This document shows, piece after piece, positions 9,098 to 14,091 of a stretch of 64,000 nt of DNA. The DNA comes from Verrucomicrobiia bacterium. Its GTDB lineage: Bacteria; Omnitrophota; Omnitrophia; Omnitrophales; Aquincolibacteriaceae. Under the pieces are notes generated by a model. The model saw only the letters and a list, made by a program, of their open reading frames with translations. It ran no database searches and was not told where the DNA came from. Location: the NCBI GenBank assembly GCA_035495615.1, contig DATJFP010000047.1:4106-68105 (forward strand). The letters run 5' to 3'. The translations under genes and the position numbers were made by a program. Position 1 is the stretch's first letter. Each line of letters opens with the position of its first letter.

Positions 9098-9337
9098 GTG
9101 CTGAAGGTAGTGTTGTTCAGTTCGAAGCAGATGATTTACGAAGGGCAGGCGCGAAGTGTGACCCTGCCCGGGGAACAGGGATGGTTTGAAGTGCACCCCT
9201 TCCACAAGCCTCTGCTTACCCGGCTCAAGGCCGGCTCCCTTCTCATCGATAAAACCCCTTTCGCCATCCGGCATGGCGCCGTCAAAGTCAAAAACAACGA
9301 AGTCGTCATCATGGCAAGGCCGGTGGGCGCCCTATGA
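9098..9337 (+). CDS. atpC: F-type ATPase epsilon-like subunit, N-terminal beta-sandwich domain only (79 aa; C-terminal helical hairpin absent)
   Basis: GTG 9098 follows GGAGGTAGGAGA. Sequence VTLPGEQGWFEVHPFHKPLLTRLKAGSLLI matches the epsilon signature (..PG..GefGiLp.H.Pllt.L.pG.). Its stop overlaps the next start (ATGA at 9334-9337). Confidence 0.6.
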   Translation: MLKVVLFSSKQMIYEGQARSVTLPGEQGWFEVHPFHKPLLTRLKAGSLLIDKTPFAIRHGAVKVKNNEVVIMARPVGAL

Positions 9338-9552
9338 GCCGGAACATCGCGCTGACCATCATTTTCATCATTTGCATCCTTGGGCCCTCGGGCGTATTCG
9401 CGGCGACCGGTTTTTCGAGCATCCAGGCCCTGGGCAGAAATCCGTCGGCGGCGCCGAAGATCATGAGCGCCATGACGCTTTGCCTGCTGTTTACCGAAAG
9501 CGTGGCGATCGTCGCCTTTCTGATCGCCTGGCAGTTGTTCGCGCCTAATTAA
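9334..9552 (+). CDS. atpE: F-type ATPase c subunit (72 aa, two TM helices)
   Basis: Two hydrophobic helices separated by a polar loop (QALGRNPSAAPKI). Conserved carboxylate in helix 2 (LLFTESVAIVAF). Confidence 0.7.
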   Translation: MSRNIALTIIFIICILGPSGVFAATGFSSIQALGRNPSAAPKIMSAMTLCLLFTESVAIVAFLIAWQLFAPN

Positions 9553-9595
9553 GGAATAACGACCGGGCCCGGGTGACGGGGCCCAAGGAGAAAAA

Positions 9596-10315
9596 ATGCC
9601 TTTCGTCGGAACGTTTTTGTTTCTGCTCATTTTTTGCGGGGGACTGCTTTTCATTATGAACCGTGTCCTGAACACCCAGGCGCACCAGGTCACGCGCCAG
9701 CTCATGACCATTTCTGAAGAGCAGGACAAGAAAATCACGGAGCTGCAGAAACAGGCCAAGGACAACGAGCTCAAAGCCGCCCAGCTCATCAATGAGGCTC
9801 GCCAGGAAGCCGAGCGTGTCAAAAAAGAGGCGCGCGAAAAGGCGGACATGATCCTCGATCAAATGCAGCAGCAGGGCCGGACCGAGGCCGAGCACATCGT
9901 CAGCGAGGCCGTGAAAACGCGCGACGCCATGCGGCAGGAAATGGTCCAGCAGATGGAAAAAAAAGTGGTGGTGCGGGCCTGCCAGGTCGTACTGGAGATC
10001 CTGTCCGCCGAAGCCCGGAAAAGCGCGCATGAGCAGATGCTCTGCCAGCTCATGGAAGGCGGACTGCAGACGCTCGAGAAGATGGACTCGAGAGAGAAGA
10101 TCGCCCGCGTCCGGATCGTCAGTGCCTTTCCCCTAGAGAGCGGGCTGCGCGCCAAGATCGAAGAAACCGTGCAGAAAAAACTGGGGCACCTGCCCGAAAT
10201 CGCTGAGGTCGTCGATGAGAAACTCGTCGCGGGGCTGCGCATCGAATTGGGCCATCTGGTTCTGGAGGGTTCCCTGGCCTCACGCGTGAAGGAGTATCTG
10301 AAAAATGCCGCTTAA
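9596..10315 (+). CDS. atpF: F-type ATPase peripheral-stalk protein, apparent b/delta fusion (N-terminal TM, long coiled coil, delta/OSCP-like C-terminus)
   Basis: AAGGAG RBS at 9583-9588. N-terminal TM FVGTFLFLLIFCGGLLFIM, then a charged heptad region. The C-terminus LVAGLRIELGHLVLEGSLASRVKEYL resembles the delta C-terminus. Position is immediately 5' of alpha. Confidence 0.55.
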   Translation: MPFVGTFLFLLIFCGGLLFIMNRVLNTQAHQVTRQLMTISEEQDKKITELQKQAKDNELKAAQLINEARQEAERVKKEAREKADMILDQMQQQGRTEAEHIVSEAVKTRDAMRQEMVQQMEKKVVVRACQVVLEILSAEARKSAHEQMLCQLMEGGLQTLEKMDSREKIARVRIVSAFPLESGLRAKIEETVQKKLGHLPEIAEVVDEKLVAGLRIELGHLVLEGSLASRVKEYLKNAA

Positions 10316-11789: not shown

Positions 11790-12679
11790 TCCCGCTTGTC
11801 AAGCTCAAGCGTGAAGTGGAATTCAATGTCGAGCTGAAAAGCATCCTGAACGCGCTGAAGGGTATTGCGCTAAACCGCTTTTACGCGCTCCAGCGCCAGC
11901 TCACGGTCTTCGACCGCTTTCCGGCACTCGCCGGCGATATCCTGTCGGGCATCCCGCTGGAAAACATCGATCACCCTTACGTGCGTCCCGCGACCCAGAG
12001 GCCGGTGGTGCTGATGGTCACGACCGATTCCGGTTTCATGGGAAGCCTGAACGCGCAGATCGTCAATGCGGGCATCGCGGAAGCGGGCGCGGAGGGATAC
12101 CTTGCCGTGATCGGGGAAAAAGGCATGGGCCTTATCGGCGACCAGCGCCGGGAGACCAAGCTGTTTCCGGGCATCAAGGAAAAGACCCAGTCAAAACTTG
12201 CGACGGAGGTCTGTGAGTTCCTCCTGGGAAAAATTCTGAGCGGGGAATGCGGCCGGCTCATCGTGGTCTTTCCAAAGCCGATTTCGCTCGCGCTGCAGGA
12301 AGTCACCGTCGAGACCGTGCTGCCGTGCAGCACCTGGCTGGCCACGGAAAAAAACACGGCCGCGGCGCAGGACGTGATCTGGGAATCCGAGCCCAAAGAC
12401 ATGCTGGCCTACGTCATGACCTTCTGGGTCGAAAACCGGCTGGATTCCGTCTTCGCGATGAGCCGCGTGTCCGAATTGGCCGCGCGCGTCATGCACCTGG
12501 AAGGAAGCATCCAGGAGCTGACGTTGCAGGGAAAACATCTCAAACACCAGTATTTCAAGACGCGGCATGCCATGATCGACCGCAGCATGCGCGAAGTGTT
12601 CGCCTCGCAGCTCCTTCTTTCGGAAGTCAACCAGATGCTCGCGGCCGAGGAAGAAAGCGGCGGCGGGCCCTTACCCTGA
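11786..12679 (+). CDS. atpG: F1 ATPase gamma subunit (297 aa)
   Basis: ATGA overlap with atpA. Blocks [19 protein letters not shown] and [12 protein letters not shown], and the C-terminal helix [19 protein letters not shown], align to gamma. Confidence 0.8.
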
Positions 12680-12687
12680 GCGCAGCG

Positions 12688-14091
12688 ATGGATGATTCAA
12701 AATCCGGGAAAAAATTGAACGGCTGGGTGGCGGGCGTTGAAGGCCCGGTCGTCGAAGTGAAATTCGACGCCGGCCAGGCGCTGCCCGCGATTTTCGAAAT
12801 CCTCGAAACAGACACCAAAGACGGACGCAGGGTCGTACTCGAAGTCGCCGAGCACAGCAAGGGAAACATTGTCCGCTGCATCGCCATGTCGTCCACCCTC
12901 AACCTTCAGCGGTCGGCTCCCGTCCGCCGCGCCGGGCCTTCGATCGAAGTCCCGGTGGGCGCGGAATGTTTCGGGCGGATCATGAATGTTCTCGGCGAGC
13001 CGATCGACAAGCGCGGGCGCATCGAGACGTCCGAGACCAAAGCGATCCGGGTCCACCTCGGAGGAAACAGGCTGGACAAAAAAGAGATCAACGTCCAGAA
13101 GGCGGAGCTCCTCGAGACCGGCATCAAGATCATCGATCTGCTTTTTCCCATGGTGAAAGGCAGTAAGACGGGGATTCTGGGCGGCGCCGGCCTGGGCAAA
13201 AGCGTGCTGATCCTCGAACTCATCCAGCACATCGCCGAGCGCCATCACGGCGCTTTCGTCTTTACCGGCGTGGGAGAGCGCGTTCGCGAGGGCAATGAAC
13301 TGTATCATGAAATGAAAACGCACAACCTGCTGTCCCGCGGCATGCTGGTATACGGGCAGATGAACGAGCCGCCCGGCGCGCGTTTCGGCGCGGCCTCCAC
13401 CGGCATCACGCTGGCAGAATCCATCCAGAAACAAAACCGCGACGTGTTGTTTTTCGTCGATAACATCTTCCGTTTCGTGCAGGCGGGCGCGGAGATTTCC
13501 ACGCTTCTGGGCCGCGCCCCGTCGGAAACCGGATACCAGCCCACGCTGGCTTCCGAAGTGGCCGAATTTCACGAAAGGATCCGGGCCATGGAAGGTGCGG
13601 GATCGGTGACCTCGATCGAGGCCGTGTACGTGCCCGCCGACGACTTGACCGACCTGGCGGTGGTCACGATCTTCACCTACCTGGATTCGATCATCGTGCT
13701 TTCGCGCGAACGCGTGCAAATGGGCCTTTATCCCTGCATCGATCCGCTTCAGTCCTCGTCCTCCAACATGGCGCCTGAAATCGTGGGCAGCCGTCATTAT
13801 AAAACCGCGATGGAGGTGCTGAAAACGCTCAGCCGTTACGAAGAATTGCGGCGTATCGTTTCCGTCGTCGGCGTGGATGAACTTTCCAAGGCCGACCGGA
13901 CGCTTTACGAGCGCGCCCGGAAGATCCAGAATTTTCTCACCCAGCCTTTCATCGTGGCCGAAGTCTTTTCCGGCACAAAAGGCGTGTATGTGACACTTGA
14001 TCAAACCCTGGCCGGCTGCGAACGGATTTTGTCAGGCCGCCTGGACCGGCAACCCGAAGAGACTTTCTACATGATAGGAGCCTTGACGTGA
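12688..14091 (+). CDS. atpD: F1 ATPase beta subunit (467 aa), divergent motifs
   Basis: ATG 8 nt after the gamma stop; the ORF-track start at 12247 is an upstream in-frame extension. Walker [11 protein letters not shown] (canonical GGAGVGKTVL). [28 protein letters not shown] and YVPADDLTD blocks are conserved. DELSEED is replaced by DELSKAD. Confidence 0.85.

Follow-up and report, generated by a model that had tools for sequence, protein, structure and literature searches.

The closest described counterparts of the locus considered here are the non-respiratory, "symbiotic" F-type ATPase genes that Seymour et al. (2023; PMC10066038) report, in the passages available to us, beside type IVa pilus (T4aP) clusters throughout Omnitrophota. 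According to those passages an F-type ATPase lay within 10 kb of a T4aP cluster in 57 of 66 contigs, a role in host attachment or in motility on hosts was proposed, and the supplement includes one genome with only K02111 and K02112 (F-type alpha and beta) together with V-type subunits. Parts of a 2026 preprint add that, among complete genomes of Omnitrophota, the majority combine alpha and beta with no recognisable gamma, and that a V/A-type ATPase is found in most Gorgyraeia. West-Roberts et al. (2023) linked giant genes to loci resembling those of type II secretion systems (T2SS); a text search of that paper found no mention of ATP synthase or F-type ATPase. Here we describe an F-type ATPase module of six genes (epsilon, c-like, b/delta fusion, alpha, gamma and beta; positions 9098-14091) in a stretch of 64,000 nucleotides from contig DATJFP010000047.1, hereafter the window. 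We consider it likely that this module is a non-chemiosmotic, ATP-hydrolysing motor, derived from F-type enzymes and dedicated to a giant-protein/pilus apparatus of Omnitrophota.

Judged by synteny and gene content, the locus belongs to the kind described by Seymour et al. A type IV filament cluster is found less than 10 kb from its alpha and beta genes, the gene for the assembly ATPase GspE starting 492 bases past the end of beta. Its origin is in Omnitrophota: named beta homologues at 63-83% identity come from Omnitrophica or Omnitrophota, save one "bacterium", the source record itself being labelled Verrucomicrobiae. As far as the 2023 passages go, their loci likewise combine F-type alpha and beta with a T4P/T2SS-like cluster, and giant open reading frames (ORFs) are common in the same genomes. 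The passages retrieved by search term describe only the phylogeny of alpha and beta and their co-location (PMC10066038); they make no mention of a c-ring, or of c-like and b/delta genes, kept in the absence of subunit a, of a c carboxylate that decays, of a delta deprived of its N-terminal domain, of the fusion of giant proteins with the membrane protein that we call p305, or of riboswitches for cyclic di-GMP (c-di-GMP). One relative (L008, DATECO010000165.1) carries the label Nitrospiria, and all other named relatives, apart from the window's own record, are Omnitrophota. The Nitrospiria and Verrucomicrobiae labels may be binning or classification labels, or may reflect lateral transfer.

The six ATPase genes are not an operon of their own but part of one longer, tightly packed operon on the plus strand. 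It runs from the gene for a giant protein with immunoglobulin (Ig)-like repeats (1-8169) through that for p305, a bitopic membrane protein of 284 residues (8198-9052), the ATPase genes and a gene for a stand-alone MshEN-domain protein (14088-14540) into a T2SS/type IV pilus-like set. Stop and start codons overlap between epsilon and c, b/delta and alpha, alpha and gamma, beta and the MshEN gene, and GspE and GspF. Within the module c-b/delta-alpha-gamma-beta follow one another as in the canonical operon, from which the module departs only by the new place of epsilon and the lack of a. A metagenome scan with a pattern for the c-subunit loop confirmed at least 496 stretches, and in the 80 loci in which synteny was read the order p305-epsilon-c-b/delta-alpha-gamma-beta-MshEN-GspE-GspF-GspG holds almost without exception. 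The same order, from a giant ORF to the pilus genes, is found on five independent long contigs (L001-L005), none of which has an a gene, and with the giant gene included it is kept in nearly all loci. A minority order, with alpha upstream of epsilon-c-b/delta, occurs at L009 (3-4497), L085 and L088.

By model cut-offs and motifs alike, the module has the catalytic alpha/beta head of a canonical synthase. Alpha (494 residues; 10305-11789, plus strand) scores 526 bits against TIGR00962 (cut-off 484) and is near-canonical, with the P-loop GDQMTGKT and an arginine finger in SVSRIG; canonical alpha chains in the PDB match it at up to 490 bits. Its N-terminus is about eight residues shorter than the canonical one and is unconserved, residue 15 aligning to canonical residue 23. 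Beta (467 residues; 12688-14091, plus strand) reaches 568 bits against TIGR01039 (cut-off 463) and is catalytically complete by its motifs, and PDB chains of canonical beta match it at 460-474 bits, compared with 332 bits for the beta of the Mycoplasma mobile G1-ATPase. Two departures stand out in beta, namely a P-loop with GKS instead of GKT and a clutch loop that reads DELSKAD instead of DELSEED. Both are shared with relatives: among the 120 closest homologues Ser follows GK in all of the approximately 114 in which the P-loop was located, and most have the loop [DE]ELSxAD. The family keeps the catalytic GERxREG, Walker B and adenine-stacking Tyr motifs. The Walker A Lys, the catalytic Glu, the Walker B Asp and the alpha Arg finger are kept in all but a handful of loci, these exceptions being loci where fixed patterns missed Walker B or the alpha P-loop. 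E. coli F1 tolerates Ser in place of Thr at this P-loop position. Pseudogene decay was considered and rejected, given the lack of frameshifts, low non-synonymous divergence (dN) and conservation over hundreds of loci. The beta subunit of L009 has GGAGCGKT, with Thr and not Ser.

Whereas alpha and beta pass their cut-offs, gamma, epsilon, c and b/delta fail theirs, which suggests that the head has been conservative and that the parts touching the membrane have diverged. Gamma (297 residues; 11786-12679, plus strand) is full length and strongly diverged, with 101 bits against PF00231, 66 bits against TIGR01146 (cut-off 194) and 40 bits for the best PDB gamma; a gamma-based search of genome contigs gave no match. 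Epsilon (79 residues; 9098-9337, plus strand) consists of the N-terminal beta-sandwich only: PF02823 covers residues 2-74, and TIGR01216, with profile positions 1-78 of 130 matched, stays below its cut-off of 67 at 54 bits. Its relatives have 77-88 residues, and the C-terminal inhibitory helices are missing across the family. These helices are a feature of the canonical synthase, although not a strictly defining one, since an 88-position epsilon model (NF009983) exists in NCBIfam for some ordinary synthases. The main importance of the acidic DELSEED residues is in the inhibition that the epsilon C-terminal domain exerts, and the joint loss of that domain and of these residues therefore makes sense.

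The stator is a b/delta fusion of 239 residues (9596-10315, plus strand). NCBIfam gives a b match at the N-terminus and the delta profile (TIGR01145, 96-167) at the C-terminus, Pfam OSCP covers residues 116-234 with profile positions 56-168, and alt_F1F0_F0_B matches at 28 bits across residues 47-232, that is, nearly the whole length; the NCBIfam scores are far under every b or delta cut-off. In the AlphaFold model (pLDDT 80) one helix spans residues 3-135, including the transmembrane (TM) segment, and is followed by a short helix and a C-terminal alpha/beta domain. Foldseek retrieved mycobacterial b-delta, V/A subunit E and the delta C-terminal domain, the last with a root-mean-square deviation of 1.9-2.8 A. 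The best structural matches, mycobacterial b-delta and V/A subunit E, share the long helix and the C-terminal alpha/beta head; the mycobacterial fusion, however, has about 440 residues and a complete delta, and V/A subunit E has no TM helix. Both the profiles and the model lack the N-terminal helical bundle of delta/OSCP, and the complete delta of a canonical synthase is consequently not present. In normal enzymes this domain grips the alpha N-termini. As b/delta evolves fast, no more than 10 proteins came back from a homologue search with it; an alignment of 13 sequences held no stretch conserved enough to search with, and a narrower alignment led to four loci only.

Much of this had been anticipated in the original prediction, which was made from the letters of the window and its ORFs. 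The reduction of epsilon to a beta-sandwich of 79 residues without inhibitory helices is borne out by the two profiles, the profiles, model and structure search concur on a single fused b/delta-like stator, and the altered P-loop and DELSKAD of beta are not only present but signatures of the whole family. The statement that epsilon leads the operon needs amendment: epsilon leads the ATPase genes, whereas the operon begins further upstream, with the giant protein and p305. It had also been allowed that the substitutions might be common in the housekeeping synthases of the phylum. In the phylum they do occur commonly, yet they are confined to the clade that lacks a.

The c-like subunit (9334-9552, plus strand), a hairpin of 72 residues, carries the evidence on ion coupling. 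It scores 23.7 bits against PF00137, just below the 24-bit cut-off, and in the PDB a profile of its family retrieves c subunits of F-type enzymes (E = 6.6e-7) in an alignment that puts E55 on the ion-binding Glu. Its cytoplasmic loop ALGRNPSAAPKI is the counterpart of the E. coli R-Q-P loop that contacts gamma and epsilon, and this F1-binding loop (GRNPSAAPKI) is unchanged in 81 of 81 unique family sequences. At position 55 the same 81 sequences have Glu in 58, Gln in 20, Met in two and Ala in one, the window having Glu55. The ion-binding Glu is thus replaced in 23 members (28%), all from otherwise intact operons, and the operons with Gln55 retain all catalytic motifs and the full gene set. 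The invariant helix-2 carboxylate of canonical synthases is therefore not a property of the family, though the window has it, and to judge from the sequences at hand the carboxylate is dispensable. A residue check for Na+ versus H+, which the original prediction had proposed, placed Glu55 on the carboxylate position and found hydrophobic residues at the equivalents of the Na+-site residues Q32, T67 and Y70 of I. tartaricus c (F/I/M, L/V/I and I/V, respectively), that is, no Na+ signature. Constraint was judged from dN alone, with dS saturated in most comparisons; dN was 0.14-0.16 for c, against 0.14-0.21 for beta, and 0.34-0.56 for epsilon, b/delta and p305. A loop that binds the central stalk is kept and a carboxylate is not needed, as would be expected if rotation had been kept and ion translocation had not.

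No match to the a-subunit (ATP-synt_A, PF00119) was found in any plausible ORF of the 64-kb window, and in 88 related loci the stretches up to 10 kb from the cluster hold no a-like or polytopic ORF but GspF. The larger epsilon-c and c-b/delta spacers of some loci hold no credible or a-like ORF; some hold riboswitches. Other polytopic ORFs in the flanks were examined as candidates for a and rejected as antisense artefacts without a Pfam match. At L016 the epsilon-c spacer holds an ORF of 129 amino acids (2661-3050), an insertion and not an ATPase subunit, which we take to resemble the four-helix-bundle proteins of 23S rRNA intervening sequences.

These results bear on the most conventional explanation, namely that the locus encodes an ordinary H+-coupled ATP synthase with a split operon, its a gene (perhaps with AtpI) lying elsewhere on the chromosome. 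An alpha and a beta that pass the atpA and atpD cut-offs, and that are nearer to canonical F1 than to the Mycoplasma F1-like proteins, would fit such a synthase, as would Glu55 of the window on the ion-binding position, the canonical c-b/delta-alpha-gamma-beta order and the fact that short epsilons occur in real synthases (NF009983). It would be difficult to reconcile with a carboxylate lost in 28% of a family with intact operons, with the lack of any a gene within 10 kb in 88 loci and of the delta N-terminal domain, and with a cluster embedded, by stop/start overlaps, in a pilus/giant-protein operon. Published tables of KEGG orthology numbers also include Omnitrophota genomes that have only F-type alpha and beta plus V-type subunits. 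We regard the split operon as highly unlikely.

The remaining genes of the operon suggest what the motor may serve. The giant protein has at least 2722 residues, is cut by the window edge, and is made up of many Ig-like repeats (resembling Kre9_KNH and the Reelin subrepeat; PF10342 and PF21471) and a coiled-coil C-terminal part. Since the frame is open from base 1 and the stretch upstream of the listed ATG at 118 resembles one more repeat unit, the protein is longer than the listed 2683 residues. At the equivalent position in the five long contigs there is a giant ORF of 1844 to more than 8471 codons. The p305 protein, counted as 284 residues from Met22 of a longest ORF that begins at 8135, lies upstream of epsilon in nearly all loci and matches no Pfam or NCBIfam family. 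Its AlphaFold model (AF2, pLDDT 86) has an N-terminal signal or TM helix, a beta-sandwich, a three-helix bundle, a C-terminal TM helix and a short cytoplasmic tail; a Foldseek search of the PDB gave nothing better than E = 0.02, so the fold offers no functional lead. Of its 122 homologues, those with a taxon name are Omnitrophota, except the window's own copy (Verrucomicrobiae) and one "bacterium", and those with a product name are all "hypothetical". A profile search extended the family to 967 representative clusters, many of them proteins of 1000-5000 residues with the match at the extreme C-terminus, and at 14 related loci an ORF that reaches the locus edge shares its frame with the p305 region. 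Together, the C-terminal matches and the in-frame ORFs argue that p305 is the module predicted to anchor the giant protein in the membrane, and that it has in some cases become a separate gene.

As separate observations, p305 forms the C-terminal module of giants of 1000-5013 residues in P0254-P0336 and at L045, L048, L055, L061, L064, L067-L069, L072, L074, L077, L082 and L089. It occurs as tandem duplicates in some relatives, and in the window it is a separate ORF directly 3' of the giant gene.

In a second alternative the ring would still be ion-coupled, by a channel from a non-homologous partner; the candidates are GspF, the TM helix of p305 and the giant protein's TM segments. ATP would then pump ions locally, or ion flow would turn the ring. 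A carboxylate kept in 58 of the 81 c sequences and the very strong constraint on c could be read in this way, and PulF, a homologue of GspF, has been reported to form an ion channel (PMC10790770). However, complete operons carry the variants with Gln, Met or Ala for Glu, the TM helices of p305 and b/delta showed no conserved charged residue, Arg included, and c has no Na+-site residues. We consider ion coupling through such a foreign stator quite unlikely.

By analogy, the ATPase could instead energise protein export, as FliI-FliH-FliJ does, unfolding or loading the giant protein or pilins for secretion. An evolutionary precedent exists, as FliI, FliH and FliJ of the flagellar and type III secretion system (T3SS) are homologous to alpha/beta, b-delta and gamma, respectively. 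The module adjoins and is co-oriented with the genes for a giant secreted protein and a secretion machine, and b/delta has a weak match, at 20.5 bits, to the T3SS stator SctL. A complete rotor, with separate alpha and beta, a full-length gamma to fill the pore, epsilon and a conserved c-ring, is nevertheless unlike the FliI homohexamer, and T3SS ATPase models score 170-200 bits where cut-offs are near 600. An export energiser therefore seems improbable. Membership of the T3SS ATPase family as such was rejected on model cut-offs and gene content (FliI/SctN models at 172-202 bits against cut-offs of 380-620, and a separate alpha and beta here, not a homohexamer).

Two further groups of F-type relatives dispense with ATP synthesis and were compared with the module. 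The Mycoplasma F1-like X0 ATPases, of Type 2 (gliding, M. mobile) and Type 3 (MIB-MIP) (PMC3369863, PMC11864180, PMC12994834), are alike in principle, each being an extra, membrane-associated F1-like ATPase without a recognisable a that powers a surface function and not ATP synthesis. Their seven-gene clusters encode alpha-, beta-, gamma- and epsilon-like subunits and three unrelated proteins (two with 3 and 12 TM segments), and no c or b/delta; in the window the three extra proteins are absent, and c, b/delta and p305 are found instead. The Mycoplasma models score below their cut-offs, namely MMOB1660 at 403 (600), MSC_0619 at 301 (520), MMOB1670 at 415 (850) and MSC_0618 at 387 (570), and membership of Type 2 or Type 3 was rejected on these scores and on gene content. 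The F1-like ATPase of M. mobile works with giant surface proteins.

The N-ATPases (Dibrova et al. 2010, PMC2881411) are likewise second, non-synthesising F-type enzymes, and they share with the window the lack of atpH or a separate delta and a long b of about 245 residues with a delta-like C-terminus. Their own features, a, AtpQ, AtpR and a c with a full Na+ site including a second Glu, are absent here. No AtpQ, AtpR or a lies between epsilon and c, which overlap by 4 bases in the window and whose gaps in other loci hold no such ORFs. The models for alternate F1F0 enzymes give 490 bits (TIGR03324; cut-off 750) and 494 bits (TIGR03305; cut-off 752), and N-ATPase membership was rejected on these cut-offs and on gene content. 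In comparison with the canonical F1Fo synthase, the window shares the catalytic alpha3beta3, gamma, the epsilon N-terminal domain, the c hairpin with its RxP loop and the order c-b-delta-alpha-gamma-beta; it differs in having no a, no epsilon C-terminal and no delta N-terminal domain, in DELSKAD and GKS, and in being embedded in a pilus/giant-protein operon.

Our preferred explanation is thus the non-chemiosmotic motor, to which we consider the alternatives above less likely. It is built on the subunit composition, the intact catalytic residues, the conserved interface of rotor and ring, the absence of a at the loci, the dispensable carboxylate and the gene order. In such a motor the alpha3beta3 head would hydrolyse ATP and turn gamma and epsilon together with the attached c-ring, while the single-pass b/delta stator would hold the head. 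As there is no a-subunit there would be no ion path, and the enzyme would run in the direction of hydrolysis only. Torque or conformational work could be passed to p305 and the giant protein, to the pilus platform, or to both, in the inner membrane. The ATPase would then be a co-transcribed, dedicated part of an apparatus that comprises the giant Ig-repeat surface protein, its bitopic anchor p305 and the T2SS/type IV pilus-like machine, and the motor would serve attachment, secretion or movement on host cells. This agrees with the suggestion of the original prediction that the enzyme is functionally specialised and differently regulated. The suggestion gains from the absence of a, found neither in the window nor around the cluster in the 88 relatives and earlier noted only for the neighbouring genes, from the dispensable c carboxylate, from the loss of the inhibitory epsilon domain, of its acidic docking loop on beta and of the delta N-terminal domain, and from the tight packing, with several stop/start overlaps, with a c-di-GMP sensor and a T2SS/T4P-like machine.

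The motor reading should be interpreted with some caution, as several points weigh against it. Glu55 is kept in the window, as in 72% of the family, and some selection retains the Glu. The absence of a covers the window and the 10-kb flanks of relatives, and an a gene or a second ATPase could lie elsewhere in the genome. Alpha and beta are so canonical that sequence alone leaves ATP synthesis possible, and a c-ring turning in lipid without a known partner does no obvious work. Moreover, the family has been placed by sequence and predicted models.

A more specific version of the motor may be put forward tentatively, and we hold it to be possible but doubtful. The F1/c-ring would here be an ATP-driven torque generator, mechanically coupled across the inner membrane to the p305 module, the pilus platform or both, as a diderm counterpart of the M. 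mobile gliding engine. It would represent an evolutionary intermediate, with Fo left without its channel and the ring kept as a pure mechanical rotor, and c-di-GMP would activate it when the cell attaches to prey or host cells.

A likely control signal of the apparatus is c-di-GMP. The stand-alone MshEN protein (150 residues; 14088-14540, plus strand; PF05157) scores 67.7 bits against the c-di-GMP motif model NF053729 (cut-off 38), directly follows beta in most loci, and is predicted to be a c-di-GMP receptor, and GspE carries a second MshEN domain. Aptamers of the c-di-GMP-I riboswitch (RF01051/RF03167) were found by Rfam in the epsilon-c spacer of six relatives, at L018 (9806-9886), L021 (7238-7373), L022 (7970-8054), L026 (5473-5555), L031 (3353-3450) and L070 (1566-1648). 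Five of the six reach the Rfam gathering score, that of L070 having 55 bits and E = 2e-10. In those relatives the riboswitches would put c, b/delta, alpha, gamma and beta, as well as the pilus genes, under the control of c-di-GMP. An Rfam scan of window positions 1-24000 found no riboswitch, and the window, with its 4-base overlap of epsilon and c, has no such spacer.

Rotary ATPases are normally defined by the coupling of ATP to an ion gradient, and in this family a full rotor and stator persist under strong selection, seemingly without an ion path. Nature may thus offer here an experiment on the capabilities of a c-ring that has no subunit a, and the family bears on the recruitment of F1-like motors for surface functions, as in gliding and antibody cleavage by Mycoplasma. 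With at least 496 metagenome stretches that have the c-like gene, and 967 p305 clusters, the system is apparently widespread in Omnitrophota. These are ultra-small and probably predatory or parasitic cells, and a role for the motor would bear on how uncultured cells attach to or attack their hosts. The label "F0F1 ATP synthase" given by annotation pipelines may, moreover, wrongly credit such genomes with chemiosmotic ATP synthesis.

Several features of the window deserve a brief description. It has a G+C content of about 59%, and nearly all its genes are on the plus strand. In the 43-base spacer between c and b/delta lies a GC-rich inverted repeat with an 8-bp stem (9563-9586), found in a scan for terminator-like sites; it may stabilise or punctuate the mRNA, and might set the level at which c, a high-copy subunit, is expressed relative to the others. 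Downstream of the MshEN gene, and all on the plus strand, follow a GspE/PilB-type assembly ATPase with its own MshEN domain (14583-16247; PF00437 at 428 bits, PF05157) and a GspF/PilC platform protein (16247-17458; PF00482). The region 17511-22053 then encodes the major pseudopilin GspG, two minor prepilin-like proteins, GspK, a PilM/PilN (GspL-like) fusion and a GspM-like protein (PF08334, PF07963, PF21687, PF11104/PF05137, PF10741). The last segment (22050-23524) holds a protein of 119 residues without assigned function, a Rotamase_2 protein resembling peptidyl-prolyl isomerases (PF13145 at 23.6 bits, below the 27-bit cut-off) and a hairpin. The same Rotamase_2 gene is found in such loci according to part of West-Roberts et al. 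(2023). The hairpin (23504-23524) is terminator-like, lies just 5' of glyQ and is probably the end of the operon, no standout site of this type occurring earlier in it, although terminator-like sites were overall no more frequent in the scan than by chance.

Outside the operon, a second very large gene (31793-37771) encodes a protein of 1992 residues that is rich in E, A, K and Q, has coiled-coil character and an N-terminal signal-like segment, and is without a meaningful Pfam match. The extreme AT skew (0.47) between 32 and 36 kb is due to this gene. Three tRNA genes found by Rfam (31229-31302, 46506-46576 and 46998-47079) are unrelated to the ATPase.

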